DNA from: a virus
Taxonomy: Duplodnaviria; Caudoviricetes
Strand: one strand, 5' to 3'
Length of the DNA stretch: 34,677 nucleotides
Virus record (IMG/VR): IMGVR_UViG_3300017754_002862
Location: 1-34,677 of that record
Position numbers and translations under genes: made by a program. Below the pieces are notes generated by a model. It was given only the letters and a program-made list of their open reading frames with translations, made no database searches and was not told the DNA's origin. Position 1 is the first letter of the stretch. Each line of letters starts with the position of its first letter. Shown piece by piece: positions 1,662-34,677 of this stretch.

Positions 1662-1912
1662 CAATAGGTGTTGTCTATGATCCGCGCAATTTGTCATGGG
1701 ACCAATGGGCGTCTTTAATGTGTGAAGCCTATGCAGGTCAGCAGCTTGAGATACCGCATGATGAGAACAAGTGGCAAGAATGGGCAAATGGTTTTCATGG
1801 CATTGGCTTATTTGGCAGTGATGCTGTGCCTAGTGCATCATCATTTGCGCGATGGCAAGACTGGGCGCAAGCTGTAGTTGGTGCTGTAGCAAATCAAACA
1901 CAACAGACATAA
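1658..1912 (+). CDS. Small Trp-rich phage virion-module protein
   Basis: 84 aa, ATGA overlap with the upstream stop, repeated W-x-x-W-A helices (WDQWA, WQEWA, WQDWA). Confidence 0.6.
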   Translation: MTIGVVYDPRNLSWDQWASLMCEAYAGQQLEIPHDENKWQEWANGFHGIGLFGSDAVPSASSFARWQDWAQAVVGAVANQTQQT

Positions 1913-4011: not shown

Positions 4012-5043
4012 ATGGCAATTACACAAGGCAGCCCGTTACCGAATATTACGACCACGCAAGGTCAAACAACTACCGCGCCTAGTTGGTACACTGATTACTT
4101 AAGTAATTTAGCAGGTAATGTAACTAGCCAGACTACAGGACCAAATGCTGCTCAGTATGTAGGTGCTCAACCACTACAACAGCAAGCATTTCAAGCAGCT
4201 GGTGCGCTTCCTGGGACTTATCAGCCTACATTAAATCAAGCAACAGGCTTAGCATCTGGTGTAGGCGAAGCCGATGTGGCAGCCAATGTCAACCGGTTTA
4301 TGACGCCTTATACACAGAATGTGGTAAATGCATTAGGTGATCTAGGTCAAAGGAATATTAGCCAGTTTTTGGCACCTCAAGCCACAGCGGCATCTGTAGG
4401 CTCAGGCCAATTTGGTTCAAAGCGTGGTGCAGAAGTACTAGGTCAAGCCATCAACACTGGACTGCAAAACTTAAACTTAAATCAAGCACAGGCATTACAA
4501 ACCGGTTATGGCCAAGCACTTACTGCAGCACAGCAAGAACAGGCAAACAAGCTTGCAGCATCATCACAACTAGGTAACTTGGCCACTACAGGTCAGAACA
4601 TGGGATTGGCTGATATTAATGCGCTGTCTACCATGGGCGGGCAACAGCAAACGATTGCACAAAATGAGCAGTTGTTTCCGCTACAAACATTAAATACTGG
4701 TGCTCAAGCACTTCGTGGTTATCAAGTCCCTACAGCAGTCAATTCAACATATACCGGACCAATCCCAGGCGCTTATTCTGCTTCTCCATTGCAGCAAATT
4801 GCAGGCATTGGCTCATTGCTATCTGCAGCAAGCACCTCAGCATCTGGTCAGCCTACGTCATTTGGCAATTGGCTAGGTCGTCAACTAACATCAGCAGGTA
4901 GTGGTATTGGCGATCTGTTTGGAAGTAACACAGGTATGAGCGGTGTAACAAACGACGGCCTCAACTTCTTGATGGGTACTGGTGCAAACGACGTCCCATA
5001 CCCAAGAGACGCAAGTGGTAATGTTATTACCGACGGAGAATAA
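4012..5043 (+). CDS. Probable DNA-transfer/pilot (ejection) protein
   Basis: 343 aa, Gln/Ala/Gly-rich with few charged residues; motifs TTAPSWY, FMTPYTQNVV, GQFGSKRG; AAAGG RBS; located after the tail genes. Confidence 0.6.
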   Translation: MAITQGSPLPNITTTQGQTTTAPSWYTDYLSNLAGNVTSQTTGPNAAQYVGAQPLQQQAFQAAGALPGTYQPTLNQATGLASGVGEADVAANVNRFMTPYTQNVVNALGDLGQRNISQFLAPQATAASVGSGQFGSKRGAEVLGQAINTGLQNLNLNQAQALQTGYGQALTAAQQEQANKLAASSQLGNLATTGQNMGLADINALSTMGGQQQTIAQNEQLFPLQTLNTGAQALRGYQVPTAVNSTYTGPIPGAYSASPLQQIAGIGSLLSAASTSASGQPTSFGNWLGRQLTSAGSGIGDLFGSNTGMSGVTNDGLNFLMGTGANDVPYPRDASGNVITDGE

Positions 5044-8777: not shown

Positions 8778-8824
8778 TACCTTTCAATAGTCAAAAAAAT
8801 GTGGTTGCCCACGGAAAAATTATA
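8778..8824 (-). promoter_or_regulatory. -10 box TATAAT, GNRA hairpin and leader motif TTGACTATTGAAAGGTA
   Basis: On the minus strand, TATAAT (8819-8824) overlaps the stop of the TS-like gene, then GTGG-GCAA-CCAC (8801-8812), then the motif (8778-8794), 3 nt before the ATG at 8774. No clear -35. Confidence 0.55.
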
Positions 8825-9602
8825 CATTCAAAAGCCACTTTGAGAAGGCAAATTCAGGGTTTACGCTCTTCTCAATCAAGACGTGTGCTTCATACCTACT
8901 GATTCTAGGCGGCGCATCAGCTACAGGCACATGCTCAGCATTGCTAAGAATGCTATTGAACATAGTCATTCTGGATTCATACACATGGAATGAACCGGCA
9001 GAGATTGTTAGTGTCCCCATTTCAACATTAAGCAAAGTAGCCACAATTTCTTGTAGGAATGAGAAGGTAGGCAGGTCGTTTGCCATGCCCCACAAGATGT
9101 CTTGGCTTCTCATGATTGCACGAGCATTAAGCCTACCATTTCGTAGTCTGAATTCTATGGCAATAGTGCAAGGTACGTCTTTGGCTTCAGGGTCCATGTG
9201 GTCAGCACTGGAACCATACATTGGAATGACAGCCCTACGGCTCATAGGATCCTTGGTCAGTATCCGCTGAATAAACTTAATGCCATGTACACCAAACCAG
9301 TAGCTACCATAGTTGCTGTTAAGTTTGCCATTGAGAACTATCTTGCCCCACTGTGCAGCATGCTCAGCAATAGACAGGTCAGTTGGATCAGCATGAATGT
9401 ACCAAGCCATTTCACGCTTGAGGTACTTAACATTGAAGTTACGGCCTACAAAAGAATTGAACCTTACAAAAGGGTTGCAAGTGTAGGATACATTCTCAAG
9501 CTCTAGGCACCTTTCACCATTGGGGCTTGACCACTGGCCTTGGTTTGCAAGAACCTTGTATAGGTCAATCAGTTGCGCTTCATTTTTAATCTTGAGGTCC
9601 AT
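8820..9602 (-). CDS. Thymidylate-synthase-superfamily enzyme, T4 gp42-like dCMP hydroxymethylase (dCMP-modifying)
   Basis: Motifs YLKREMAWY, LNSNYG, SRRAVI, DVPCT (Cys145), MRSQDILWGMAND (Asp176) and AGSFHVY. The Cys-Asp spacing of 31 matches T4 gp42 C148/D179; dUMP enzymes have Asn at this position. Confidence 0.85.
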   Translation of the reverse strand: MDLKIKNEAQLIDLYKVLANQGQWSSPNGERCLELENVSYTCNPFVRFNSFVGRNFNVKYLKREMAWYIHADPTDLSIAEHAAQWGKIVLNGKLNSNYGSYWFGVHGIKFIQRILTKDPMSRRAVIPMYGSSADHMDPEAKDVPCTIAIEFRLRNGRLNARAIMRSQDILWGMANDLPTFSFLQEIVATLLNVEMGTLTISAGSFHVYESRMTMFNSILSNAEHVPVADAPPRISRYEAHVLIEKSVNPEFAFSKWLLNV

Positions 9603-10521
9603 ACTCTAACTCCGTAATGTGGTAAGGTTGATTGGGGTAATTTTGCATGTGGTACAAAGGCGGTGGCAGCTTTTGTGCTTGTACATTGTTGTTTAAAGCC
9701 CATGTGTAGGCATTGTTGCCTAAAGCATAAACACGAGCTGGCTTTAGCTTACGAAGAAACAAAACATCTGTAGGTGTGCCTTGGTAGGATTGCGTGTTGA
9801 TCCAGTAGCATTGGCCCTCAGATATGCCTTCACGTTCTAAAGTGTCAGCCAACATGCGGCTTGGGCCGTCATTGTCTAAGAAGTTAATGAAGGGGACTAT
9901 GGCTGCACCGGCCTTTATGTTAGCTCTAGGGCCCTTATCACAAAGCATTAGGTAATTACCTTCCTTAAAGCAACCGCCACCTTCAGCCTCATTCTGAATG
10001 CTTGCAGCCTTAATCTTTTCTATCAGATCATCTACTTCATCGTATTGGTAGTCATAGTGCACAACCGGCAATGATGTCTGGTACTTTAGCGTTTCATACT
10101 CGTTGTAGACTGCACTAAGCTGTGTAACAGTATCAAGGTATTCCTGATCTTGTCTATCTACAAAAGTATTGACGCATAAAGTAAAGTCAGGCTGGCAATG
10201 CACAACCACACCACCACGAGATAGTGCTACCCTTTCCAGCATACGTTTCCTAGGCATGTCCACGCGGTTGGCGCCTTTGCGATAGACATTGCCATAGATA
10301 GGCTCTGATAGCCAGCAACGATCCATGATGACATGGTCATTGTATGTGAGGGCCTGCGACATAGCACGGAAGTATGTCTTACATAACTCTTCAGCAACTA
10401 GGCCTTTGAAAGGGCCATGCTTAACAATTTGCGTCATGCGGTCTTGTTGGAAATGCTGTCGCAAAGCTTCTGATAAAGTTGTTTTGCCTGCCCCGTCAGG
10501 GCCTTCAAGTATGATGATCAT
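9586..10521 (-). CDS. dNMP (thymidylate-type) kinase fused to a degenerate UDG-superfamily domain
   Basis: N-terminal IILEGPDGAGKTT P-loop and VIMDRCWLSEPIYG motif. The C-terminal ~130 aa follow family-4 UDG motif order (LMLCDKGP, PF, YWIN, KPARVYALGNNA, LPPPLY). Confidence 0.8.
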   Translation of the reverse strand: MIIILEGPDGAGKTTLSEALRQHFQQDRMTQIVKHGPFKGLVAEELCKTYFRAMSQALTYNDHVIMDRCWLSEPIYGNVYRKGANRVDMPRKRMLERVALSRGGVVVHCQPDFTLCVNTFVDRQDQEYLDTVTQLSAVYNEYETLKYQTSLPVVHYDYQYDEVDDLIEKIKAASIQNEAEGGGCFKEGNYLMLCDKGPRANIKAGAAIVPFINFLDNDGPSRMLADTLEREGISEGQCYWINTQSYQGTPTDVLFLRKLKPARVYALGNNAYTWALNNNVQAQKLPPPLYHMQNYPNQPYHITELEYGPQD

Positions 10522-11414
10522 TTAAGAAAGCTTTCTAATTTTTTTAGTGTATCTTGCTTTGTTGCTAACTTTGTTGATAGTGCGATTGCCTGTTCTGCAG
10601 CCATGATGAGTTGCCGTTCATCACTCATGTTTTCAATCTCACGTAATGTGTAACTATATGCAGGACTTATGACTGCAAGTTCCTTGGGGTCACCGCCTAA
10701 GATTGCACCGGCATGTGCGGCATGTAAGTACCTAATGCGCCACCAGCCACAGCCGGCATGCGTGTATGTTGGACACAAGATGCCTTTGTATTCACCGTAT
10801 TCCCAGACAATGTCACTTTCAAGCATGCGCGGTTGGCCTAATGCCTTGCCGCCAATGCTATGTACTGGCCAACTAAGGTTTTGCTTTGTTGCCCATTCAT
10901 GCGCACCAGTTGATAGTGATGCGTTGTACCACTCATTCTTACGACGAGGCCAAGCCATTTGATGGCAGGCAGGCTGCTCATACAAAGGTGATGGATCCCA
11001 TTGCAAAATGGTGTCTACGTCAAGGCCCATCTTCTTGGTGTCACCCCAAGGAAAAAGCGGAGCAATCCACTTATGCTCACGTAAATCACTTGGGTCTATT
11101 ACATCACTCCATGAATCAAAGATTTTTTGGAATGACCAGTCATCAAGGCAAATGTATGCTGTCATGCATTCTTTTAAAACACGTTTAGCGCCTTCAGGAT
11201 GGACTGCGTTTTTATCTAATGGGTAGACATATAGGAAAACTGCGTCATACTTACGTAGATCAGTATCTGCAGTTACAGCTATGTGATCTACATCATGCCC
11301 TTGGCTAAGATATGCTTCACGCATTAGCTCGGGTATGGACACAAACTTAGTTGAGCTTGCTCTTTGAGGATGATTTGTATGCGTTTCGGTAACGCCCGTA
11401 ATGAGAATTTTCAT
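10518..11414 (-). CDS. GT-B-type (beta-glucosyltransferase-like) DNA glycosyltransferase, putative
   Basis: Start moved to ATG 11414 (MKILITG) after the AAAGGA RBS. Rossmann-like start, GHDVD, LDDW and C-terminal GWWRIRYLHAAHAGAILGGD resembling the nucleotide-sugar-binding helix of BGT-like enzymes; operon context with kinase and TS homolog. Confidence 0.6.
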   Translation of the reverse strand: MKILITGVTETHTNHPQRASSTKFVSIPELMREAYLSQGHDVDHIAVTADTDLRKYDAVFLYVYPLDKNAVHPEGAKRVLKECMTAYICLDDWSFQKIFDSWSDVIDPSDLREHKWIAPLFPWGDTKKMGLDVDTILQWDPSPLYEQPACHQMAWPRRKNEWYNASLSTGAHEWATKQNLSWPVHSIGGKALGQPRMLESDIVWEYGEYKGILCPTYTHAGCGWWRIRYLHAAHAGAILGGDPKELAVISPAYSYTLREIENMSDERQLIMAAEQAIALSTKLATKQDTLKKLESFLK

Positions 11415-11420
11415 ATGTAT

Positions 11421-11453
11421 TCCTTTCAATTATCAACAAGCGCCATTGTATCA
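11421..11453 (-). promoter_or_regulatory. Extended -10 promoter (TGaTACAAT) and leader motif for the modification operon
   Basis: Minus strand reads TGATACAAT (11445-11453) inside the helicase 3' end, then TTGATAATTGAAAGGA (11421-11436), then ATG 11414. Confidence 0.5.
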
Positions 11454-14567: not shown

Positions 14568-15329
14568 TCATACATGCCTCATGTGAATCATAGGCGTGCA
14601 GTTGAAAAAGTTCTTATAGACAAAATGTTCTTTGCGATGTACAGCAAACATGTTTTTAGAACGTAAGTATGTGTAAAAGTTTTTCTTGATCTGTCTGTTG
14701 GTGTACACCTTATCATCAAAGCCTACGTACCTATAAAAATGCCCCGGTGCTTTTACAGAAAAACTAGAATTTTCAACCAAGTACTTCATGTCACCAAGCT
14801 GGTCAAACAAAGTATGTGGCTCAATAAAGTGTTCAAAGCATTCAAAGGCAAACACAGCATCTACGGGCACAGGCGTTTCAACATGCTGAATGTTGTTTAC
14901 CCCTATTAGACCTAATACCTCAAACAATGCTTTAGCTCTTTCAATTTGAGCAGGCGCAGTTTGATGATAATAAATTGTTGAGTTAGGAAATGCTTTTGCA
15001 AGCACTACACTAGAACGGCCATCTCCACCATACAAGTCAAGTATAGTTTCAGGCACAATGTTTAAGTCATTAAAAAACTTTAAGGACGTTATCAAGTTGA
15101 TTCGAGTGTAGTACTTAAAGCACACATCAAGATTGTTGATATACTTTGGGTGGTCATACACACTAAAGTTGTAAGCAATGTCTTTAGGGTGCTCGGTTGA
15201 GCCAACGTGATGGTTAGCATACCAAATGTCATTAAGCATGTCATCAACCTCAAGCATTTCTGCTTTAGACTTTGTACACGCTTTTGCGTATGCTGATGAT
15301 TGACTTTTAGCGTCTTTGATGCAAATCAT
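14568..15329 (-). CDS. Class I SAM-dependent methyltransferase (small-molecule/sugar type)
   Basis: ILDLYGGDG SAM-binding motif and VDAVFAFECFEHF motif. No DPPY/NPPY or PC motif of DNA methyltransferases. ATGA-coupled to the polymerase stop. Confidence 0.7.
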   Translation of the reverse strand: MICIKDAKSQSSAYAKACTKSKAEMLEVDDMLNDIWYANHHVGSTEHPKDIAYNFSVYDHPKYINNLDVCFKYYTRINLITSLKFFNDLNIVPETILDLYGGDGRSSVVLAKAFPNSTIYYHQTAPAQIERAKALFEVLGLIGVNNIQHVETPVPVDAVFAFECFEHFIEPHTLFDQLGDMKYLVENSSFSVKAPGHFYRYVGFDDKVYTNRQIKKNFYTYLRSKNMFAVHRKEHFVYKNFFNCTPMIHMRHV

Positions 15330-18339: not shown

Positions 18340-18705
18340 TTACTTGCGACGAACGGTAAGTTCCCAGACATCCGATGTGGTTGTCCCGGGTATGGCTTCA
18401 CCTGCATCCCACCGCTCACGGAAGGCAGTTGAAGAAAGCCGCTTATGCAGCAATTCGAATTGGCCACTTTCTGCCACGTACTTGTAAAACGTGTTCCAAT
18501 CATCTATGGCAGGGTGACGTGTAAGTTTCATTGTGCAAGAAGCCTTGTCGTTGGCTGCTTGGCTAATGCCGGCATGGCTCATAAGATCCATAATGTCTTT
18601 TTCAAGCTCGGCCAATTGCTTGGTGCATTGCTTAACCTCTTCACTAAGGTCTTCACGTTTAGCCTTGGTAGCTACAAACTTGTCAATGAGTTCATTGATA
18701 TTCAT
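18340..18705 (-). CDS. Conserved phage replication-module protein
   Basis: N-terminal coiled coil, then IDDWNTFYKYV...LLHKRLS...IPG; AAGGAG RBS. Confidence 0.55.
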   Translation of the reverse strand: MNINELIDKFVATKAKREDLSEEVKQCTKQLAELEKDIMDLMSHAGISQAANDKASCTMKLTRHPAIDDWNTFYKYVAESGQFELLHKRLSSTAFRERWDAGEAIPGTTTSDVWELTVRRK

Positions 18706-19127
18706 TTTGAGGACTCCTTAGCTAATGCATCTTTTCTTGTTGCTTGAATAACTTGTGTAAGTGCAGGCTCAGGCGGCACCCAACCTACTGGCTTAATGAC
18801 GTCGTATTGAGAGCCACGAGTAGAACGCATGAGCTCATTAGCAGGTACCTTGCGCATGTTGGCCTTGTGCACAACATCAAAAAGCTTATCAAAAGGTAGC
18901 CCCATTGCATGTGCAACACCAAGTGCAACGTAGACCAAGTCAACGATTGCATCGGCCGCGTCAACCAAGCTTTCCTCTTCACAAGCTTTTAGGTACTCAC
19001 TCAATTCCTCCATGATGAAGCGAGCAAAGTAGCTTGCCTCAGCGGGTGAAAGGAACTGTGGATAGTTGGTGATTGGCAAATTCATTTTTTGTCTGAAGAT
19101 GCCAACTTTTTCAAAGTTAGTCGCCAT
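18702..19127 (-). CDS. MazG-like/PRA-PH-type dimeric NTP pyrophosphohydrolase
   Basis: IMEELSEY...DAADAIVDLVYV...VHKANMRK...IKPVGWVPP (EExxE...D..D metal motif). Confidence 0.85.
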   Translation of the reverse strand: MATNFEKVGIFRQKMNLPITNYPQFLSPAEASYFARFIMEELSEYLKACEEESLVDAADAIVDLVYVALGVAHAMGLPFDKLFDVVHKANMRKVPANELMRSTRGSQYDVIKPVGWVPPEPALTQVIQATRKDALAKESSK

Positions 19128-23938: not shown

Positions 23939-24406
23939 ATGACTACAAAGACACCATCTAAGAACGGAAAGTTCTTGGGCCGCCCTACTAAGTACGACCC
24001 CGCATACTGCGATCAAGTTATCGAGCTAAGCAAAGACGGGTTGTCTCGCTGGCAGATCTGCGCTCGTCTTAACATTGGCTATAGCAATCTCATCGCATGG
24101 GAAAATGCGCATGAAGATTTTCGGCAAGCCTTGATCGAAGCCAAGATCATCGCGCTTGCTTATTGGGAAGATCTGGCGATCGATCACATACGTGAAGCAC
24201 CCGGTGGCATCAAGCTAAACACCGGGCTCTGGTCTAGGTCAATGTCAGCTCGCTTTCCTAGTGAATACCGCGAAAACTCCAAGCTCGAGGTAACTGGCAA
24301 AGACGATGGCGCTATTCAGGTTGATGTAGTGCATGACTTTGCACAGGAGCTTATGAACGATTTGTTGGCAACTCGTCAAAGCGATGCTAAGTCAGATCGT
24401 AACTGA
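23939..24406 (+). CDS. terS: Terminase small subunit
   Basis: GRPTKYDPAYC, HTH-like segment, AYWED, RFPSEYRE, LEVTGKDDGAIQ; overlaps the terL start. Confidence 0.85.
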   Translation: MTTKTPSKNGKFLGRPTKYDPAYCDQVIELSKDGLSRWQICARLNIGYSNLIAWENAHEDFRQALIEAKIIALAYWEDLAIDHIREAPGGIKLNTGLWSRSMSARFPSEYRENSKLEVTGKDDGAIQVDVVHDFAQELMNDLLATRQSDAKSDRN

Positions 24407-25811
24407 GCAGTTTGCTGACCGGATCAAGACCGGACCAGACTTAAACCACGCATCCAAAGCGTGGCAAGCCGCAATCAAAGCTCGATTGACGTGGCTTAAG
24501 ATTGCTAACAATCATCAAATCACGCCAACAGGCGATTGGTGGAGCATATGGCTCTTGTTGGCAGGTCGTGGTGCAGGCAAGACTCGGTGCGCTGCTGAAT
24601 GGACTTGGTGGGAAGCTTGGACACATCCTAGGACTCGTTGGCTAGTCTCGGCTCCTACCTCAGGCGATGTACGTGACGTGTGTTTTGAGGGCGACTCTGG
24701 GCTTCTAAAAGTAGCGCCCCAAGGTATTATTGCCAACTACAACAAAAGTCAACACGAGCTTCTTCTTGTGAATGGCTCAATCATCAAAGGCATATCGGCT
24801 TCTGAGCCGGATCGATTCAGGGGTCCGCAGTTCCATGGCGGCTGGCTTGATGAGCTGGCTGCATGGGATTATCTTGATGAAGCTTGGGACATGATCCAGT
24901 TCGGCATGCGACTTGGCTTACAGCCACGACTGATCTGCACCACCACACCTAAGCCTAAGCCCTTGATCGTGGACTTGGCTAATCGAGACGGAGAAGACGT
25001 GGTCTACACAACGGCTTCCACGTACGATAACAAGGACAACCTTGCGCCTAAGTTCATGCAACAGATTCTCCAGTATGAGGGCACGAAGCTGGGGCGCCAA
25101 GAGATTTACGCCGAGATTATCGATCCCGAAGAAGCTGGCATCATCAAGCGTACGTGGTTCAAGCTTTGGCCGAATGATAGACCATTGCCACGGTTCCAGT
25201 ACATTGTGCAGTCGTATGATTGCGCTACGTCGGACAAGACTAAGAACGATCCGACAGCATGCACGGTCTGGGGCGTGTTCAAACCTAATGACGACAAGCC
25301 CATGTCAGTAATGCTGATCGACTGTTGGGAAGAGTACATGCAGTATCCCGACTTGCGACCTAAGGTCGTGGAAGAAGCTGAAGCAATCTACGGCGATGAA
25401 AACGAGTTTGGGCACGGAAAGAAAGTCGACTTGATTCTGATTGAGGACAAGTCGGCTGGCATTAGCTTGATACAAGATCTTCAACGAACCGGCCTGCCTG
25501 TGCGGAGCTACAACCCGGGCATGGCTGATAAGATGATGCGGCTGAACATCGTATCGCCCATCATTCAACGTGGCCGAGTCTATGTGCCTGAGTCCGCCTC
25601 AAGCCCGGGCATGGCAAGAGACTGGGCCGAGCCCTTGATCTCGCAGTTATGTGCATTCCCCGAAGTCAGGCATGACGACTTGGTTGACTCAACAACTCAG
25701 GCTTTAAGAATTATGCGTGATACTGGGCTCATCAGCATAGATCCGGTGTATGATGCCGATGACTCGTATGATGAAGATCGACCTAGAAGGGTGAACCCAT
25801 ATGCCGTATGA
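24384..25811 (+). CDS. terL: Terminase large subunit
   Basis: LAGRGAGKT Walker A, WLDELAAW Walker B, TTTP; nuclease motifs QSYDCA, IEDKSAG, HDDLVDSTTQAL. Confidence 0.95.
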   Translation: MLSQIVTEQFADRIKTGPDLNHASKAWQAAIKARLTWLKIANNHQITPTGDWWSIWLLLAGRGAGKTRCAAEWTWWEAWTHPRTRWLVSAPTSGDVRDVCFEGDSGLLKVAPQGIIANYNKSQHELLLVNGSIIKGISASEPDRFRGPQFHGGWLDELAAWDYLDEAWDMIQFGMRLGLQPRLICTTTPKPKPLIVDLANRDGEDVVYTTASTYDNKDNLAPKFMQQILQYEGTKLGRQEIYAEIIDPEEAGIIKRTWFKLWPNDRPLPRFQYIVQSYDCATSDKTKNDPTACTVWGVFKPNDDKPMSVMLIDCWEEYMQYPDLRPKVVEEAEAIYGDENEFGHGKKVDLILIEDKSAGISLIQDLQRTGLPVRSYNPGMADKMMRLNIVSPIIQRGRVYVPESASSPGMARDWAEPLISQLCAFPEVRHDDLVDSTTQALRIMRDTGLISIDPVYDADDSYDEDRPRRVNPYAV

Positions 25812-27015
25812 TGACTTAGCGCGAATGAGAGCCGAGATGCTCATGCGTCAAGACCCTAATGTGTATGACGATGGCGCAAGTCAATTAGGCATGAACCCTT
25901 ACATGCAGCAAGTCGGCTTGTTTGGCAAAGGTAAGCCTAAGCCCGTTGCGCCACCAATCGACATACAACGACGTGCAGTCTTTGGCTTAAAGCCGCAAGC
26001 ACCATTGCCTGATAACTTACCAGCCGTAAGATCGTCCGATGTGCCTGTGCCAAGTGCAGTACCTACACCACAAGCACCAACTCAACCAGCACCTCCAACA
26101 ACACCTCTTGCGCCATTAGGTCAGATGGCGAACAAAGTACTGAATACGCCAATATCGAGACGTGAAGTGTTAAAGACGACAGGCCAAGTTGCGTTAAACC
26201 AAATGCTACCAAGCATGGGCATTGCGTCTGAAATTGCATCACCATTGACTCAAATTGCTGAAGCGGCGCCTGTGTATGACAAGAATTCGATTATTGGTGC
26301 AATATCATCGTTCATCACGGATAAGATGACCGATACGTCAAGTGATTTAGCCGAAGAGCTATTAGGTCAAGGTGTTTGGGAGCCTGATGACCCGCATGAT
26401 GCTGACCCAACTACAGCATGGGAATACGCGCAATATGGCGATGAAACCCATGCAAACTATGAAGGCAACAATCCAAATGCTGAGCAAACTGCAGGATTGA
26501 AAACGCTTCGTGATAACTTTAATCTGCAAAAACTATCTGAGCATTCAGGCATTCCAATTGAAGAGCTTAAGAAGCACATATCAGACATTGAGCTTCAAGG
26601 CTTTCCATTGTCATTAGGCAATAGACAAGAAAGATTATCAGCCATTATGGAAGATGGGCGGCCTAAAGAAGCAGTACGCATGACAGCACTGGAAGATTTA
26701 GATGCTCAAGAGAAGTATTTAAAGAAAGCAGCTAAAGAACTTTATGGCAAACAAAAAGCATTTGATGATGATGAAATGCGTGAGATTGCTGAAGCAGCTA
26801 AAGACTTGGCATACACAGATTATGTAAGAAAAACACTAAACGATGTAAGTTTGCCAAAAGGCAGCATACATGAAGAAGTCATAAACAAAGCAGGCAACAA
26901 CTGGCTTAAAAGCGCATTGCAAGATGTGTTTGATCAAGGCTCTGAAGACTGGGGCTATAACAGCGACGACTTTTATGAGCGCGCTTACGACACATTTAAG
27001 TCTAAGGACGAATAA
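25801..27015 (+). CDS. Hypothetical, possibly virion-associated, protein with internal twin-arginine-like motif
   Basis: 404 aa overlapping the terL end; Pro-rich N-terminal part, ISRREVLK, acidic helical C-terminal domain. Confidence 0.6.
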   Translation: MPYDDLARMRAEMLMRQDPNVYDDGASQLGMNPYMQQVGLFGKGKPKPVAPPIDIQRRAVFGLKPQAPLPDNLPAVRSSDVPVPSAVPTPQAPTQPAPPTTPLAPLGQMANKVLNTPISRREVLKTTGQVALNQMLPSMGIASEIASPLTQIAEAAPVYDKNSIIGAISSFITDKMTDTSSDLAEELLGQGVWEPDDPHDADPTTAWEYAQYGDETHANYEGNNPNAEQTAGLKTLRDNFNLQKLSEHSGIPIEELKKHISDIELQGFPLSLGNRQERLSAIMEDGRPKEAVRMTALEDLDAQEKYLKKAAKELYGKQKAFDDDEMREIAEAAKDLAYTDYVRKTLNDVSLPKGSIHEEVINKAGNNWLKSALQDVFDQGSEDWGYNSDDFYERAYDTFKSKDE

Positions 27016-27018
27016 CGC

Positions 27019-30000
27019 ATGGCCGCAATCTACGATGCTTTAGGCAATGTCATTGGAGACGATGGGCAACCATCTGTCGACCAAATGCAGTATGAGTTGG
27101 CTAGGAACGGCAAGCCTAGCCCATTGGACACTGCAGTTAACGCAATCAAGAATGTAGCTGTCAACAACAATCCCTTAATGCTTAGAAAGCAAGGGCTTGA
27201 TTTAGCAGGCGACATACCTCGAGTTGTGGCAAGCGGCATGGCGCCATTTATTGCAGGCATTACGCAGCCTGTAGTAGGCGCCTATGACTACGCATCTAAG
27301 ATGCCGGGCGTGCTGTATCGTGAGAAAGTGCTTGGTGATCCGCAATCAATGCAAGAAGCTGCCACAATTCGTGAAGGGCTTCCTCAGTTTGGTGCGCCCG
27401 GTGCACGGTATAACCCAGAGCCTATGAACAGGCGTGTAGAAGCAATTGGTCAAGCCGTAGCGCCGCAAACACCACAAGGCCAAGCTGCACTTGAAGCCGC
27501 AGGCCAAGTATTTCAAGCAGCCAAGTTACCTACAATAGGGCCAGGGTCCGGAGTGCCTGGGACTTCACGTGTATCACCAAGACCCTTCATTACGCCTAAC
27601 GACTTACGGGTTGTAGGTGCCGAAGCAACTCGTGTTGGTAAACAGATTGGTGAGATACCTACAGACTTTGTGAATGCGCAATCAGGCTTTCAACGCATAG
27701 ATCCTGTGACTAACCAACCTGTGATGGGCGCAAGAATACAAGGCGGCGTGGATAGACTTGGTGACATCATGGCGCAAAGACGCATGCAAGGTCTTAGCCC
27801 AATCCCGGGTTTGCCTGACGTATTGCAACCACAAACCAGTATGTATGCTGTGCGGCCTTCGGAAGGTCCGAACTACGTGGTAAACCCCAAGTTGCCTGAG
27901 TCAGCATTGGCACAACGGCCTGAGTTAGATACTGCAGGTATTTACACAGCAGTCAACGCGCTTAGGCCCATTAAAAATCCTACAATCAACAATGTCAATG
28001 GCGCATATTATGCTGCAAACATTGTTGACAACCCTACTGTAGATCAGGCCTACACTGCTTACTATGACAACGTGCTAAGAACTTTATTCCCAGACACACG
28101 AGACATGCTTGAAGCAAATGTGGCGTATCAACTTACATATCCACGTGAAGAAGAGCGTAGTAAAGTCAATCGCACAATTCTGAATAACTTCATTAATGAG
28201 TTTAATCAGACTGCTGAAGCTACTGCGCAATTGCCTACTATGGAGCAATTTGCCGAGAACGTAAAAGCAGCAGACAAATGGCTTGACAATACATTCACAA
28301 AGCAGTTGGTTAAGAATGTAGGCACAACCAATGACCCATTGCTTAAACAAGCAGAGCAAGGTATCACATTCAAAGATCCTATGCAGCTTGTTGCTGAGTA
28401 CAGCGTGCCTAGTGCAAAGCTGCAAAATGCACGTCAAGCGGCTGGCTTTAATCCGTCAGGCGAATACTTTGATGCCATGAACGCGGCAAAGCAAGAGCTT
28501 GATCAAGTAACTAATGACGAGTATTTGCCGCTTGAGCGTCAACGTATTCAAGCACAACAAGATGCTGCGCGGCTTGGCATTCCAGTTACAGAATACGAGC
28601 CTTATAGAAATCTTACTGCACCTCGTGATCGTGCATCTGCAAAAGTTGAGAAGCTGGAAGAAGCATATAAGAAGCTGCAAATTGCAAATGCATATGCAAA
28701 CGCAGTTGATTCAATGGTTGCCACCAAGACTGCCAAACAAGCATGGGACAAGATACCTAGAACTGAGAGACAGTTTTATCCACAGCTCCGTGACCTTGCT
28801 GCAAGTGCGCCTGATACACCTATTTACGACGTGTTTGCAAAGCATAGCGCATCAGGCTACCAAGAGATGGGCGAAGACATTGTTAAGCAAATCGTAAAGG
28901 GCAAAATCAAGGCCAAAGATTTGCACAAGACGCCGCTTGATGTGATGGTTAAAAAGAAAGCTGAAGCACGTGATGCAGTGGAAAAAGCAGCACAAACAGA
29001 AATCAAGAAACGTGTTCAAGCTGTGTCTACGAAATTGATAGAAGACTTATCACTTGTGCCTGAGGTGTTTAGGTTTAGCAATGCCAGCGTGCTTGAAGTC
29101 TCCAATAAGTATGATGTAGATACCATTCGTCGAATGCTTAGTGCAGATACAGATGTGCTTGACTTATGCGCTGCAAACTCAGGTAAACCGCCTAAGTCTG
29201 CTAAAAGCATCTATCATCCAGACAAAGGGGATAAGCAGGACTATTATCCTAGCGCTGACCCCATTACAGGCAAGCGGCTTAGACCTACTGTTAATGACAC
29301 CATATACGTTAAAGACACGGCAAAAGGCACTGAGTTTAATGCTTCAATTCGTGATAATGTAACTGGTTTGCCAGTTGGGCTGTTGCAGTTCTCAAGCTTA
29401 GGTCCCAATCGTGCAGGTGTGACTGAGTATAGCATGGGCTTTGTATCAGGCTTTAGAAACAGTGCGCCTATTGAGCCACAGTATAGAAACGTGGTACGTG
29501 ATTACTTGAATCTACGTGCTGACATCATTAAGAATTCAAACAGCGAAAAGCTTGCTACCAATGGCATATACGACACGTCAAAGCCTACGCAACAGCTCTT
29601 AAACAACTTAAACTTAAGCAGAAAGCAATGGGACGACGTAACCAAAGTTTATACAGGCGCAGTTCCACGTTTTATTACAGCTGAAGATGGCCGTAACATT
29701 CTACAAGCAGTTAGAGATCAGCAAAGAGCAGTTGCACCTGTAACACAAACGCCGAGTGAAGTTGGTGACATGCAAACGCAGCGTACAGCGTTGCTTGCAG
29801 AGCAACGTCAACTACAAAATGATCAACTTCGCGGTAATCAAGACTATGATGTTACACAGCGGCTTGATGACATTGCTTCACAACTTCAAGACATTGACCA
29901 ACGTTTAGCAAGGTCAACACAACAGCAGCAACCGCAAACATTCCAATATGGAAATCTATATGAAATAGCACGTGGCGGTGCTGGTATTGAGCCTATGAGA

Positions 30001-33000
30001 CGTTTAGAGCCTGAAGTTACGTCAACCAGTGCTAGTGCATTCCAAGGCTTATTCCCACAGCATATTCGTAGAAATGATGAAGTTCGTAGAAGTCAAATAC
30101 TATCGCCTGAACAAGTTGCAGAAATTATTGAAGAGCTTGAAGTAAGCGCACGACAAATTGATGACTTGGATGAGGGCGCTGTATTAGAAGATTTCAACAT
30201 CACTTCACAAGATCAGCAAGATCGTGTTGTTGACCAGCTTACTAATGCTGCACAAAGACTCCGTGATGCAGCAAATATTCACATTGGTGATGATGGTCGT
30301 GATGTTGTGCCGCAACAGCAGCAACCACAAAGTGTAGAGCAAAGACTATCTGACTTGCGTCAATTGATTGATGTGCCAATGCATCGTGAGAATGATCCGG
30401 CAGTTGAAACTGAATTGAATAATTACGCAGCGTATTTGCAAGAACGAATTAATGTGCAAACACGAGCAGGGTATTTGCCTGAGCATACTGCCGATTACAT
30501 ACGCACTGACATCAACCAGTTACGCAATGATACATTTAACAACCCCAATGAGTATACTGTAGGCTTTACAGCAAGGCAGGTTGATGATTTTGTAGGGGCA
30601 TTAAGAACTACCATTGACACGATTGGCCAATGGCTAGAAGAGCAACGTCGCCAACAGGCGCCTGAGCCTGATGTTCAAGAGCAACGTCTAACTACAAACC
30701 AGCAAATCACCAATGCATATCGCAATGAGTTTTCGTTGCGTACTGAAGAGCCTGATGTTGATGATCACTTAATTGAGTTTCAAGACAACATTGACGCTGA
30801 AGTAAATCGCTTGTTTGGTGAAGGCCGTACAAGTAATGACATTGCAATGCATGTGGCGAATATGATTTCAGAGCGCATACGTGAGTTGGTTGAAGACTAC
30901 ACTGCTGGGGAAACTATAAATAGATATGCACTTACACGGGAAGAATCAAACATTGCTCGTGGGCGTTTAAATACAACATTTACTGCTGTGCTGAATATTG
31001 TGGATACAAATGAAGGGCTTGATGAGCCTGAGCAACTTACAGAATTGCCTAATAACTTCTTTGAGCCTGATGAAACGCATCCAGCAAATCTACCAGCAAC
31101 TACACCTGCACAAGCATTGCCACCGCCTGTACAGGCTCGAGCACAGCGTAACCCTGACGCAAATCTTGATAGCTTTATCAATCGCGTTCGTAGAGAAGAA
31201 GGCGCACAAATTGCTGATCGAGTTGAGACAGTTGCATATCGTGTTGCTGAAAATGTAACCAATAACAGAGTAAATCAGCTTGATGCGGATCAGGCTGAAG
31301 AATTTGCACGCGGTTTACGTGTTGCTGCAGAATTGGAAGATTCTGAATTAGTTGAGATTGCATTGCGTGGGCTTGCAGATATGGTGACAACGTTAGTTGC
31401 ACAAGAGCCTGAAGCAGCATTTGTGCAACCTGCAGCACCACAAGGTGAAGTTACAACTCAGGGCGTCTTAAATGCATTTAGAACAGCATTTACGCCAAAT
31501 ACGGGCAGTGCTGCTGCTGATGCATACTTATCGCAATATGGTGATACCTTAATCAATCGCATGGTTGAATTAAACAACGTAGTAATTACGCCTGCAGAAG
31601 TTGCAACAGGTATATCAGACGAAATACGAGAGCATTTTCGTTTATTAGTGCGGTTAGCCGATCAACCGAATGGTGCGCAAGCAACCGGTCTTACAAATGC
31701 TGAAAACATGATGGTGCGTCATCGTCTTGAAACAGCGCTTGGCAACATACGATTTAGCACAATGCCGCCTGAAGGTAATCAACCTGCAATACCACCACCA
31801 GTTCAAGAGCGGTTACCTGCACCTGTGGTTGCACCGCAACGTGCAAACTTGCCTGCTGAAGTACAGCAAAACATTAACAATCGAAATCGGCAAATTACAG
31901 GCGCATATGGAAGTGCTCTTGACCCAAACACTGCTTTTAACAATACAAATGATGCATTAAGTGAGTTTATAGACTTACTAGATGGTATGGCTACTAATTT
32001 ATTTGGTAATGGTATTCCTGCAAATGAGATTGCAGAGAACTTACAAGCACGTATTAGATCTGAGATTATAGTGCTTAGCGACCCTAATCGTGTAGCTGAT
32101 CGTGGGCTTAACGCCGCTGAAGCCGACATACTTCGTGGTCGCTTAGATGACGCATACGGCAATTTAGCAAGAGTGCATGATCAACTAATTGAACCCGCAC
32201 AACAACAAGCATTTACGCCACAAGATGCGTTGGATATGGCGCGTGAGTTGCTTGAGCAAGAACGTGTAAACCAAGGTCAGTTAAACGAGCCCGGTGTACA
32301 AGGTTCAATCTACGCCTTGCGTAATGGCGTGTTTGATGATGCGCGTATTCGTCGACTGCCTGAGCAGCTTAGACAACCATTTGCAGAATCTGTGTCTAAT
32401 GCGTTAGAAACATTGCTTGCACAAGAAGCACCGCAACGCATGCAGGCAATGCAAAATCTTACTGCTGATACTGCAGTTGCGCGTCAAGCAATTCACAATG
32501 CAATAAGAAACATAGAAAACGATTATGGTGAAGATGTTGCAAATCGTGCGTTTGACATTATTGAAAATATTGCAGAGCATTTAGACCCTGGCGATCAGCT
32601 TACTGCGTTTGTGATGAACATACGGCGTAGAATGCAAGATGTAAGACAAGATGTGTATGAAGCGTTGGACCATATTGCAGATGAGCTTGCGTCTGTAGGT
32701 CGTGAAGCGCCGCAAACACAACCACGTGCTCAAGAAGTAGATCAACTATCTGTTACTGCGCAAATGCCTTTAACTCCAGATCGTGCAAATGGCGATCCAC
32801 AAGTTAATGCAATGTTGGCAGAAGTGCAAGAAGGCCTTGCTCGTCAGATTGAAGATTTGCGACTTGAAGCTAGAACCCCAGAAGATATTGCAAGTATTAT
32901 TTCTACTAGACTATCAGAGCACGTCATAAACGCAGAACGCGTGCACTTAGAAATGGGCACTCTTACTGCTGCGCAATTGATTGAATATGCTAGTAAGATT

Positions 33001-33459
33001 AGAGAAGCAATTGCAGCTATTCGTCAGTTCATGCCTAATGAAAACGCACTACCACAGTATACGTTTAACGACTTGTTTAATCCAGTTGCTGATAACGTGT
33101 TTGGTATTGCAGGTAGAGCAGAGACTCTTACTGCTCGTGATCGTGAGTTATACACAATGCTTAGTGATGTTATAGACAACGCAATTGAAGAGGGTACGCC
33201 TTTGCCTGACCCAATGGATACGGAAGCATTTGCACAAATTATTTTAGATGACGAGGTTGGTGGTGAACTTACTGATCTTACAGATGCTGAGCGTCGTAGA
33301 TTGGCTGCCATTGTTAGAAGATACGGCGTTGATGCTACGCTTCCGCCTGAAGGGCGTAAAGATGGTGGTCGAATTCGTAAGCACAAAAAAGGTGGTACAG
33401 TACGCACTATTCCTAGCGTTGAACAAATGCAATACGAACTTATGATGCGGAGAAAATAA
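27019..33459 (+). CDS. Giant (2146 aa) multidomain protein, probably a virion-packaged polyvalent-type protein
   Basis: Uninterrupted ORF with AAGGA RBS; degenerate PcfJ-like domain near 29134-29511; repeated helical modules; PSV(D/E)QMQYEL at both ends. Confidence 0.7.
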   Translation: MAAIYDALGNVIGDDGQPSVDQMQYELARNGKPSPLDTAVNAIKNVAVNNNPLMLRKQGLDLAGDIPRVVASGMAPFIAGITQPVVGAYDYASKMPGVLYREKVLGDPQSMQEAATIREGLPQFGAPGARYNPEPMNRRVEAIGQAVAPQTPQGQAALEAAGQVFQAAKLPTIGPGSGVPGTSRVSPRPFITPNDLRVVGAEATRVGKQIGEIPTDFVNAQSGFQRIDPVTNQPVMGARIQGGVDRLGDIMAQRRMQGLSPIPGLPDVLQPQTSMYAVRPSEGPNYVVNPKLPESALAQRPELDTAGIYTAVNALRPIKNPTINNVNGAYYAANIVDNPTVDQAYTAYYDNVLRTLFPDTRDMLEANVAYQLTYPREEERSKVNRTILNNFINEFNQTAEATAQLPTMEQFAENVKAADKWLDNTFTKQLVKNVGTTNDPLLKQAEQGITFKDPMQLVAEYSVPSAKLQNARQAAGFNPSGEYFDAMNAAKQELDQVTNDEYLPLERQRIQAQQDAARLGIPVTEYEPYRNLTAPRDRASAKVEKLEEAYKKLQIANAYANAVDSMVATKTAKQAWDKIPRTERQFYPQLRDLAASAPDTPIYDVFAKHSASGYQEMGEDIVKQIVKGKIKAKDLHKTPLDVMVKKKAEARDAVEKAAQTEIKKRVQAVSTKLIEDLSLVPEVFRFSNASVLEVSNKYDVDTIRRMLSADTDVLDLCAANSGKPPKSAKSIYHPDKGDKQDYYPSADPITGKRLRPTVNDTIYVKDTAKGTEFNASIRDNVTGLPVGLLQFSSLGPNRAGVTEYSMGFVSGFRNSAPIEPQYRNVVRDYLNLRADIIKNSNSEKLATNGIYDTSKPTQQLLNNLNLSRKQWDDVTKVYTGAVPRFITAEDGRNILQAVRDQQRAVAPVTQTPSEVGDMQTQRTALLAEQRQLQNDQLRGNQDYDVTQRLDDIASQLQDIDQRLARSTQQQQPQTFQYGNLYEIARGGAGIEPMRRLEPEVTSTSASAFQGLFPQHIRRNDEVRRSQILSPEQVAEIIEELEVSARQIDDLDEGAVLEDFNITSQDQQDRVVDQLTNAAQRLRDAANIHIGDDGRDVVPQQQQPQSVEQRLSDLRQLIDVPMHRENDPAVETELNNYAAYLQERINVQTRAGYLPEHTADYIRTDINQLRNDTFNNPNEYTVGFTARQVDDFVGALRTTIDTIGQWLEEQRRQQAPEPDVQEQRLTTNQQITNAYRNEFSLRTEEPDVDDHLIEFQDNIDAEVNRLFGEGRTSNDIAMHVANMISERIRELVEDYTAGETINRYALTREESNIARGRLNTTFTAVLNIVDTNEGLDEPEQLTELPNNFFEPDETHPANLPATTPAQALPPPVQARAQRNPDANLDSFINRVRREEGAQIADRVETVAYRVAENVTNNRVNQLDADQAEEFARGLRVAAELEDSELVEIALRGLADMVTTLVAQEPEAAFVQPAAPQGEVTTQGVLNAFRTAFTPNTGSAAADAYLSQYGDTLINRMVELNNVVITPAEVATGISDEIREHFRLLVRLADQPNGAQATGLTNAENMMVRHRLETALGNIRFSTMPPEGNQPAIPPPVQERLPAPVVAPQRANLPAEVQQNINNRNRQITGAYGSALDPNTAFNNTNDALSEFIDLLDGMATNLFGNGIPANEIAENLQARIRSEIIVLSDPNRVADRGLNAAEADILRGRLDDAYGNLARVHDQLIEPAQQQAFTPQDALDMARELLEQERVNQGQLNEPGVQGSIYALRNGVFDDARIRRLPEQLRQPFAESVSNALETLLAQEAPQRMQAMQNLTADTAVARQAIHNAIRNIENDYGEDVANRAFDIIENIAEHLDPGDQLTAFVMNIRRRMQDVRQDVYEALDHIADELASVGREAPQTQPRAQEVDQLSVTAQMPLTPDRANGDPQVNAMLAEVQEGLARQIEDLRLEARTPEDIASIISTRLSEHVINAERVHLEMGTLTAAQLIEYASKIREAIAAIRQFMPNENALPQYTFNDLFNPVADNVFGIAGRAETLTARDRELYTMLSDVIDNAIEEGTPLPDPMDTEAFAQIILDDEVGGELTDLTDAERRRLAAIVRRYGVDATLPPEGRKDGGRIRKHKKGGTVRTIPSVEQMQYELMMRRK

Positions 33460-33461
33460 CC

Positions 33462-34677
33462 ATGGCTACAGAAATGCCGATTCCAACAGAGTATAACCGC
33501 TTTATAGGTCCACAGGCGGAAGAAGATGAAGAGAAGGATGACCCTTCTATCTTTGAGATGTTTGACCAAGACAATGATGTTGAGATGCAACCTGATGGTG
33601 GAGCTATCATCAAGATTCCTGAAGATAGATTTAAGGGTCCAGAAGATGATCCTGATTTCTATGAGAACTTGGCAGATTCACTTGATCGCTCTACGCTATC
33701 AAGCATGGCGCTTAAGTATATTGATCTTGTAGAAAAAGACAAAGAAGCACGGGAAGAACGTGACAAGCAGTATGAAGAAGGCTTACGCCGTACAGGATTA
33801 GGCCATGACGCCCCCGGCGGTGCACAGTTTATGGGTGCCTCTAAAGTAGTTCACCCAGTAATGGCTGAGGCTTGCGTTGATTTCTCAGCTCGAGCCATTA
33901 AAGAACTATTTCCACCTGATGGGCCGGTTCGTACCAAGATCATAGGCGAGGTAACTGAAGAGAAGACCGAGCGTGCTGAGCGCAAGCGGGACTTCATGAA
34001 CTGGCAGTTGACCGAGCAGATTGAGGAATACCGCGACGAGCTGGAGCAACTACTTACACAGCAACCATTAGGCGGCTCTCAGTACCTTAAGATCTGGTAT
34101 GATGACCAAAAACGTAGACCCTGCGTTGAGTTCACGCCAATCGATAACATATATCTACCTTTTGCAGCGGCTAACTTTTACACAGCAAGCCGCGTAACTG
34201 AGGTTAATGACATTACTGAGGAAGAGTTTGAGCTGCGAATTAGTCGTGGCTTGTACTGTGATGTTAGCATCTATAAGCCAAGTGAAGAGCCTGAGCAAAC
34301 TAAGCCACAAAAAGCCAACGATAAGATTGAAGGCAAAAAGAGCTCAGGTATGAATATTGACGGCATTCGCCGAGTATTCCATATTTACGTATGGCTAGAA
34401 CTAGAAGATGATAGCTTCTCCAAAGGCGATCGTGCTCCTTACATCTTGATGGTTGATGAAACCCTGACTGAAGTCGTGGGTTTGTATCGTAATTGGGAGT
34501 TTGGCGATGATACGATGGACAAGCTTGACTGGCTGGTTGAATTCAAATTCATACCTTGGCGAGGTGCTTATGCAATTGGTCTACCTCATCTTATTGGTGG
34601 TCTTAGTGCCGCTCTTACCGGCTCTCTTCGTGCACTTCTTGATTCAGCTCATATAGCTACAGCACCTACAATGCTCA
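33462..34677 (+). CDS. Portal protein (3' partial; absent from the ORF track because it has no stop in the window)
   Basis: MATEMPIP...FYENLA...VVHPVMAEACVDFSARAIKELFPPDGPVRTKIIG...RKRDFMNWQLTEQI...PLGGSQYLKIWYD...GLPHLIGGL, typical of P22-like portals; downstream of terL. Confidence 0.85.
   Translation, partial: MATEMPIPTEYNRFIGPQAEEDEEKDDPSIFEMFDQDNDVEMQPDGGAIIKIPEDRFKGPEDDPDFYENLADSLDRSTLSSMALKYIDLVEKDKEAREERDKQYEEGLRRTGLGHDAPGGAQFMGASKVVHPVMAEACVDFSARAIKELFPPDGPVRTKIIGEVTEEKTERAERKRDFMNWQLTEQIEEYRDELEQLLTQQPLGGSQYLKIWYDDQKRRPCVEFTPIDNIYLPFAAANFYTASRVTEVNDITEEEFELRISRGLYCDVSIYKPSEEPEQTKPQKANDKIEGKKSSGMNIDGIRRVFHIYVWLELEDDSFSKGDRAPYILMVDETLTEVVGLYRNWEFGDDTMDKLDWLVEFKFIPWRGAYAIGLPHLIGGLSAALTGSLRALLDSAHIATAPTML

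Follow-up and report, generated by a model that had tools for sequence, protein, structure and literature searches.

The DNA analyzed here (34,677 nucleotides, positions 1 to 34,677 of IMG/VR record IMGVR_UViG_3300017754_002862; hereafter the window) derives from a tailed phage and encodes a DNA polymerase A, a helicase, a primase, a terminase and a portal protein, the last truncated at the window end. A variable slot between the terminase and portal genes, used in the same way in relatives, is occupied by a giant gene. Its product combines an N-terminal part with a helical scaffold, a PcfJ-like domain with a predicted GNAT fold, a long modular arm almost devoid of lysine (the lysine desert) and two Gly-Gly tags near the C-terminus (Table 1).

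Table 1 Features of the giant gene, its product and the flanking genes (window coordinates).
Feature	Residues	Coordinates	Strand	Remarks
Large terminase gene		24384..25811	+	Family match
404-amino-acid neighbor protein		25801..27015	+	Same slot; ordinary lysine content; internal control
Giant gene	1-2146	27019..33459	+	Variable slot between terminase and portal; same slot in relatives
S-x-D-Q-M-x-Y-E-L motif	17-30	27067..27108	+	Repeated at the C-terminus
Highly conserved segment	185-290	27571..27888	+	Low confidence in the monomer model
Helical scaffold with long hairpin	291-669	27889..29025	+	31 lysines in residues 281-670
PcfJ-like domain, predicted GNAT fold	670-890	29026..29688	+	Ends in P-R-F-[IV]-T motif
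Cys717	717	29167..29169	+	Sole cysteine of the protein; candidate nucleophile
Lysine desert	877-2113	29647..33357	+	One lysine, at 1993; Arg-rich, acidic, net charge about -92
Heptad-like Gln/Leu/Arg segment	916-968	29764..29922	+	Likely coiled coil, read from sequence
Module array A/B/C		30382..33021	+	Iterated profiles; Pro/Gln-rich linkers between modules
Module A, five diverged copies	1122-1202, 1241-1320, 1493-1577, 1636-1716, 1922-2001		+	About 80 amino acids each
Module B, two copies	1390-1456, 1831-1890		+	About 65 amino acids each, interleaved with module A
Module C, one copy	1740-1797		+	Iterated profiles
Module D, last of the arm	2041-2103	33139..33327	+	Iterated profiles
Two Gly-Gly tags	2112-2128	33352..33402	+	Lysine returns at the first tag
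P-S-V-E-Q-M-Q-Y-E-L motif		33412..33456	+	C-terminal; matches the N-terminal motif
Portal protein gene		33462..34676	+	phrog_1216, E 4.8e-7; cut by the window end

The giant protein has 2,146 amino acids and contains 59 lysines, of which 53 lie in residues 1-876 (6.1%), densest at residues 600-680. An earlier note on this DNA had described free use of lysine in this part followed by a long gap, and a recount agrees: between Lys876 (29644-29646) and Lys1993 (32995-32997) exactly 1,116 residues (29647-32994) are free of lysine, and the next lysine is at position 2114. The constrained region truly extends to residue 2113, with one tolerated lysine. Arginine, as had also been noted, is the basic residue of the gap (8.7%, with 16% Asp+Glu). 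The remark that the region lacks cysteine holds for the desert but is not specific to it, since the whole protein has a single cysteine, C717. The longest lysine-free run in 20,000 shuffles of the sequence had a median of 157 and a maximum of 481 residues, versus the observed 1,116, and log10 P for the gap is -13.5 at the lysine frequency of the whole protein and -30 at that of the N-region. AAA and AAG triplets are abundant in the two other frames of the gap DNA (93 and 50), and the avoidance is therefore not at the DNA level. A lysine desert as defined by Szulc et al. is an unbroken stretch without lysine that spans at least 150 amino acids or at least 50% of the protein; here the gap covers 1,116 of 2,146 residues (52%), and in the close relative L002 1,235 residues are uninterrupted by lysine.

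The earlier note had proposed that homologs be checked for lysine-free regions. A search with residues 180-880 identified 110 proteins, the query included, out of 7,989 scored candidates, and every one of them has, downstream of the conserved N-terminal part, a lysine-free run of 373-1,325 amino acids. Among 1.84 billion representatives, 150 matches were obtained with a profile of the domain (residues 670-890). In order to avoid circularity, the desert boundaries were set blind to lysine, the upstream one 25 residues past the R-F motif that ends the domain and the downstream one at the first Gly-Gly tag. Of 228 domain entries, 202 had the R-F motif followed by a tail of 50 amino acids or more, comprising 185 desert entries and 17 of an outgroup, which was hand-picked from the tree described below and from low-scoring matches. 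The 185 desert tails hold 170 lysines in 124,476 residues (0.14%), whereas lysine makes up 5.82% of the residues upstream and 7.40% of those past the tag. No lysine is present in 112 tails, 50 have one and 8 have four or more, and tails of 87 to 1,287 amino acids follow the lysine-poor pattern. Arginine in the pooled tails rises to 8.8%, and Asp+Glu amounts to 16.5%. Both edges are sharp. The 25 residues past the R-F motif contain 5.5% lysine and the next 25 contain 0.5%, the desert beginning about 25 residues past this motif, and at the first Gly-Gly tag, where the desert ends, lysine rises from 0.2% to 9.3%.

The sharp boundary had been taken as a sign of selection, and a substitution test bears this out. 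The N-region variant rates per column were applied to the tail in 67 closely related proteins, which form 12 clusters, and 8 variants to lysine were observed versus 360.5 expected (6 versus 313 with an earlier boundary), a gap far larger than the concern that columns and clusters are partly non-independent. All other residues stand at 0.73-2.5 of their expected variants, with arginine at 2.0; lysine alone is purged. The guanine-plus-cytosine (GC) content of the tail is 0.41-0.53 in 54 loci and mostly equal to or below that of the N-region, and AGA/AGG codons make up 24% of arginine codons in the desert versus 31%, i.e., they are not enriched. There is thus no sign of recent conversion of lysine to arginine, and the desert is old and not driven by GC content. 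The desert is kept by selection that is specific to lysine.

Conventional searches placed the giant protein poorly. Family scans gave no match in Pfam, PHROGs or NCBIfam, including to ubiquitin machinery families (RING, E1/E2); tblastn of both protein halves against 50,697 annotated phages gave none, the N-terminal profile found no relative among bacterial genome contigs, and a PDB sequence search returned coiled-coil noise alone. A stand-alone arm, separate from the enzyme domain, was sought among shorter proteins, where just apparent family fragments were found, a weak negative.

The domain that precedes the desert was modeled with a predicted local distance difference test (pLDDT) score of 94.4 and a predicted template modeling (pTM) score of 0.91. 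The best structural matches of the model are Hat1 lysine acetyltransferases (Z 7.8, root-mean-square deviation 3.1, 117 aligned residues; Z 7.6), and the 50 structural matches listed, judged by their titles, we take to be proteins with a GNAT fold. That the domain is PcfJ-like, as had been read from the sequence, is confirmed by structure and by a chain of profiles. A model of the first 890 residues, whose structure search was otherwise dominated by helical hairpin matches, finds a viral 'PcfJ-like protein' in BFVD (E 5e-12), and the domain profile matches the protein P0225 by HHalign (probability 96.6, E 6.3e-10), which passes the PcfJ cut-off with 33.1 bits versus 25. The Pfam PcfJ (PF14284) cut-off itself is reached by none of 31 aligned domains, nor by the query, and the ESM Atlas returned for the domain unnamed clusters below 0.9 and nothing else. 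Cys717 is invariant across the aligned domains, 82 of 82 from the desert group and 20 of 20 from the outgroup having it (102/102). The residue before it is commonly histidine (82%) and is leucine in the query. Neither a function of PcfJ-like domains nor a report of this desert was found in the literature searched, subscription papers and supplements lying outside its scope.

Related domain arrangements were seen elsewhere. The 2,619-amino-acid protein P0188, which has an ordinary lysine content, combines an InPase domain with two complete PcfJ-like units. A swappable module of about 375 amino acids, which contains the motif E-E-I-Q-S-D and shows a strand-helix-strand pattern but no Pfam match, presumably resembles a second GNAT-type domain; it is carried by P0005, P0023, P0025, P0027, P0032, P0034, P0046, P0056, P0116, P0130, P0138, P0174 and P0259, and other residues, mostly arginine, stand in place of its first lysines in P0005, P0032 and P0138.

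The arm is built of modules, probably helical, which were resolved by iterated profiles as types A to D together with a single copy of a module E, and which cover 768 of its 1,223 residues. They are shuffled and duplicated among relatives. Modules A-D show no mutual relation (HHalign probability <10) and no match to any library entry, and the ESM Atlas gave no usable match for the arm. Lysine is excluded from modules and linkers alike. The 87 copies of module A contain 10 lysines, and 9 of these share one column (9 proteins in two groups), which is perhaps a shielded position. Of the 110 proteins, 71 carry the S-x-D-Q-M-x-Y-E-L motif close to the N-terminus and 106 carry it close to the C-terminus; it is a possible packaging address.

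Of 182 lysine-poor zones, 167 stop before the C-terminus, and 130 of these stop at a Gly-Gly, against a background of 167 in 9,091 lysines (1.8%). Twelve full-length apparent exceptions have a variant tag ahead of a lysine-containing module. The tag itself may include lysine (18% at -2, 25% at -1), though most tags have none there. The complete genes L066 and L081 are tagless and keep deserts of 847 and 906 amino acids, so the tag bounds the constrained unit but is not required. The tag is found as well in head-region proteins of MW202545, in which no PcfJ-like domain was detected, and is thus a phage-wide seam. On both counts the proposal that the tag is an obligatory substrate was downgraded. 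Nothing relevant to the tag was found in the literature, and no protease family was found among the 54 open reading frames (ORFs) of the complete relative G003 (35 of them also compared with PHROGs).

Relatives append a DUF6973 module behind the tag, as in the last 150 amino acids of P0026 and many others, and distant ones append InPase or ART-PolyVal; P0034 and P0056 append a module with an H-T-H-P motif. Elsewhere in the window, the product of 1919-4009 (plus strand) has at residues 601-696 a Gly-Gly tag followed by a domain also known in tape-measure proteins. Some small to medium head-region proteins are very rich in lysine (14-17%; L185:207-656, L185:5083-5367, L187:13417-13812 and L085:17302-18651), some with several Gly-Gly tags, and are possibly internal DNA-binding proteins.

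A quick, unrooted tree of 105 domains sets apart 20 outgroup entries with a Shimodaira-Hasegawa-like approximate likelihood ratio test (SH-aLRT) support of 99; 17 of these have ordinary tail lysine (5.8%) and 3 are intermediate. The two sides differ at strand β4. The 82 desert-group domains have G-[YF]-x-S-G-x-x-N, with Tyr/Phe in 86%, whereas the 20 outgroup domains have Q-[IL]-[KM]-G-x-x-[ND], with Gln in 85%; we take Q-x-x-G-x-x-N to be the canonical PcfJ signature. The desert group thus lacks the β4 Gln signature, and the desert tracks a change at the predicted active site. Distal copies of the outgroup tail module are often lysine-free, and a module common to both groups has 1 lysine in 181 amino acids. 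A mild lysine-poor tendency may be ancestral and have become near-total in one clade.

The gene order at the locus is terminase, 404-amino-acid gene, giant gene, portal, GroES-like gene, scaffold-like gene and capsid; the portal of the relative L006 has 844 amino acids. The 404-amino-acid neighbor contains 6.4% lysine (homologs, 4.0-7.6%) and no cysteine, and the other 27 annotated ORFs of the window average 5.65% lysine. Capsid-related phages have other large proteins in this slot, whose terminal motifs are similar and whose lysine content is 5.7-10.8%; three of them have PcfJ-like matches, yet no desert. Gene position and the shared terminal motifs suggest that the giant protein is packaged in the head. 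The capsid of L006, a close relative, is 78% identical to that of Caulobacter phage RW, and 29 of 39 capsid-matching contigs fall in proteobacterial bins versus 2 in actinobacterial ones, binning being weak evidence. None of five relatives has WhiB. ThiF (E1) is likewise absent from five related genomes, a supply of ubiquitin machinery by the host remaining conceivable. These hints favor Proteobacteria over the Pup-bearing Actinobacteria as hosts. The complete relative G003 encodes a single-domain lysozyme and an SU10-type adaptor.

Other genes of the window include, at 8820-11429 (minus strand), thymidylate-synthase-like and thymidylate-kinase-like genes and a 303-amino-acid gene whose product gave no family match and whose N-terminus presumably resembles a GT-B glycosyltransferase. 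Together with a MazG-like gene at 18702-19127, this group suggests a base-modification cassette; the genes of 8820-11429 are present in G003 and were not seen among the ORFs listed for G002. An S-adenosylmethionine (SAM)-dependent methyltransferase-like gene lies between the DNA polymerase and exonuclease genes (14568-15329, minus strand). The methyltransferase was considered as a cause of the desert and dropped, as it has no counterpart among the Pfam matches of the desert-bearing G003. A 343-amino-acid ejection-type protein (4012-5043, plus strand) has 2 lysines but is also low in arginine; its homologs contain 0.4-4.6% lysine, and L131 is lysine-free over 392 amino acids. Other long lysine-free runs in these phages, in tail-type proteins that also lack arginine, were set aside as a different, low-charge phenomenon.

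We propose that the desert is a target-capturing arm insulated from the protein's own predicted lysine-directed enzyme, a reading to which we give an even chance. Protection from the adjacent PcfJ-like domain was among the hypotheses of the earlier note and fits best of these, the chemistry on lysine being a surmise. The protein would be packed into the head and delivered upon infection. Its acidic modules would bind host proteins and bring host lysines to the active site, where the GNAT-fold domain would act on lysine side chains via Cys717. Any lysine on the flexible arm would then be attacked in cis at high effective concentration, disabling or trapping the enzyme, while lysines of the rigid scaffold could not reach the active site. 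The modules behind the Gly-Gly tag would form a separate functional unit, perhaps cut off. The protein's own enzyme is the simplest cause because the constraint sets in where a predicted amine-acyltransferase fold ends, because the purge is specific to the residue that such enzymes modify and because it covers the attached arm alone, sparing neighbors. The effect is in cis, as the 404-amino-acid neighbor and the slot proteins of capsid-related phages keep their lysines. Lysine variants are approximately 45-fold fewer than expected across modules and linkers, and so large a penalty suggests that the modification is bulky or irreversible and not a mild acetylation. An extended proposal, tentative and more probably wrong than right, is that the clade injects a one-chain lysine-conjugating enzyme independent of a ubiquitin cascade, composed of the PcfJ/GNAT domain, a cysteine nucleophile and fast-evolving binder modules. 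Directed against host defenses, this enzyme would resemble a self-contained E3 ligase or a promiscuous lysine acylase in its action, and in the boldest form of the proposal the donor would be the protein's own Gly-Gly tag.

Several observations weigh against self-insulation. Foldseek agrees with the GNAT fold, but weakly, no PDB entry reaching E 1e-3 (best 2.9e-3), and Z values below 8 are middling, so that the fold call rests on the consistency of the matches. The canonical acetyl-CoA pyrophosphate loop is R/Q-x-x-G-x-G/A; it is not evident from the sequence, in which the loop after β4 reads S-G-x-x-N. The case for lysine-directed chemistry draws on the fold and on the desert itself and is circular in part. 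Lysines remain in the domain (15), the scaffold (31) and the low-confidence N-terminus (7), and these must be assumed to be out of reach. Even where the tail is short (P0164, 100 amino acids), modules with lysine come after the tag, so that cleavage or separation would be needed, yet no protease family was found in G003. The tail module of the outgroup is mildly depleted (45 lysines in 1,431 amino acids) despite the shared cysteine. P0195, placed on the desert side by a long branch, has 18 lysines in 273 amino acids. Finally, the desert and the β4 signature map mostly to one split of the quick, unrooted tree, and the link between them therefore counts as one event, not many, and is no proof of cause. 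The desert is real and strongly selected, and the mechanism is plausible but unproven.

Other causes would place the lysine-directed activity outside the protein. A host system (ubiquitin-like, pupylation, acyl- or methyltransferase) might attack the protein, the arm being purged as the part that binds this machinery or lies exposed to it, for example as a decoy or inhibitor. Bacterial E1/E2/ubiquitin-like systems do conjugate to lysines (PMC10557695, PMC11601596), and lysine deserts are enriched in Mycobacterium phages (PMC10665810). The rapid shuffling of modules with change of length suggests an arms race, and persistent host pressure could maintain the desert through the deep divergence of the family. 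However, lysine persists at the two ends of the protein and in other proteins that are likely injected, so that the purging of the arm alone would need an explanation; the host hints do not point to Pup-bearing Actinobacteria, and a host system does not account for a desert that starts where the GNAT-fold domain of the phage itself ends. We consider such a host system unlikely. A lysine-specific protease, either a phage maturation enzyme that cuts lysine-containing tags or a host or environmental one of Lys-C type, would have a ready substrate in a beads-on-a-string arm, and the desert does end at a tag often bearing lysine. Yet most tags have no lysine at -2 or -1, lysine is absent from the modules and not just the linkers, the low-confidence N-terminus retains it, and lysine-rich proteins in the same slot of related phages bear the same tag. 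The maturation protease raised in the earlier note is weakly disfavored in particular, given that no protease family was found among the ORFs of G003 and that lysine-rich regions and proteins adjoin the desert, and proteolysis in general has a slim chance of being the cause.

A physical need for an acidic, arginine-for-lysine composition, whether for solubility in the packed head, passage through the tail channel or the envelope, or mimicry of nucleic acid, appears equally doubtful. The arm is acidic (net -92), in a pattern like that of salt-adapted proteins (PMC13696103). Against this, lysine falls to 0.14% while arginine rises to 8.8%, homologous or similar outgroup modules hold 3% lysine, and proteins with 5.6-6.5% lysine pass the same channel. 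Such biases reduce lysine but seldom remove it entirely. In a transpeptidation scheme Cys717 would use the Gly-Gly tag of its own protein, set free the modules downstream of it and join enzyme plus arm to a target lysine, so that an arm lysine would give a dead-end loop. This would account for the strength of selection and for the ending of 130 of 167 deserts at Gly-Gly (12 more with a variant tag), but the tagless L066 and L081 keep their deserts and MW202545 has the tag with no PcfJ-like domain detected; we judge the scheme very unlikely. Chance, GC bias or translation under tRNA-Lys cleavage is scarcely credible. High GC content does lower lysine generally (PMC13696103), but tail GC is mostly not above that of the N-region, the shuffles speak against chance, and no tRNA gene was found in the window or in five loci. 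Cleavage of tRNA-Lys, which the earlier note had itself thought less likely, is rejected, as lysine codons must be translated at either end of this ORF. Overall, that interpretation is partly supported: selection and the PcfJ-like domain were borne out, tRNA cleavage was not, the maturation protease is weakly disfavored, and escape from host ubiquitin-like systems is a less likely alternative.

Whether phage lysine deserts are adaptive has been stated as open, and GC content confounds the known cases (PMC13696103). The present family removes this confound through its moderate GC content, lysine-blind boundaries, two-sided controls, an outgroup with lysines and the substitution test, and it points to a non-host cause, the phage's own enzyme. 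If self-insulation is the correct reading, it would extend beyond ubiquitin ligases, so far shown mainly for eukaryotic ones; it would become possible to test the chemistry of PcfJ-like domains, which phages and mobile elements commonly carry, and the desert would be the first functional clue to the uncharacterized PcfJ family.

Self-insulation by a lysine desert has been shown for the E3 ligases San1, Slx5 and Hrd1 (PMC13696103). In San1-type deserts lysines cluster in or near the catalytic domain, and likewise here, where the catalytic role is predicted. The protein differs from these ligases in being of phage origin, with no RING, no E1 in five relatives and a predicted GNAT fold with cysteine, and its arm consists of repeated modules whereas the substrate-binding deserts of San1 type are reported to be disordered. 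Deserts in Mycobacterium phages form a host-level trend for which evasion of Pup has been hypothesized (PMC10665810, PMC13696103). The giant protein resembles them in exceeding both published limits (>150 amino acids, >50% of length). In contrast to them, it has a GC content of 39-54% with no rise in the desert, the host hints are proteobacterial, and the desert is one arm of one protein with sharp boundaries. With PcfJ-like proteins (PF14284), to which structure and profile link it, the domain shares the invariant cysteine in an H-C-[VI]-G-type motif, but it has no direct Pfam match, its β4 Gln signature is replaced and a lysine-free arm follows. Phage polyvalent proteins (PMC5512222) are similarly large, with exchangeable modules in one chain in terminase-portal phages, and are proteins packaged in the virion and injected, as the giant protein may be; the main text of that paper contains neither 'PcfJ' nor 'lysine', and the polyvalent GNAT families in it are RimI-like. 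The T7 kinase gp0.7 is promiscuous, and Ser/Thr/Tyr are depleted in phages that carry the kinase (PMC13645617). It thus resembles the enzyme proposed here as a phage protein modifier with a C-terminal targeting part, whose acceptor residues are depleted in the phage's own proteins. The kinase, however, is expressed early and the depletion extends across early proteins, whereas in the present family it is near-total and in cis.

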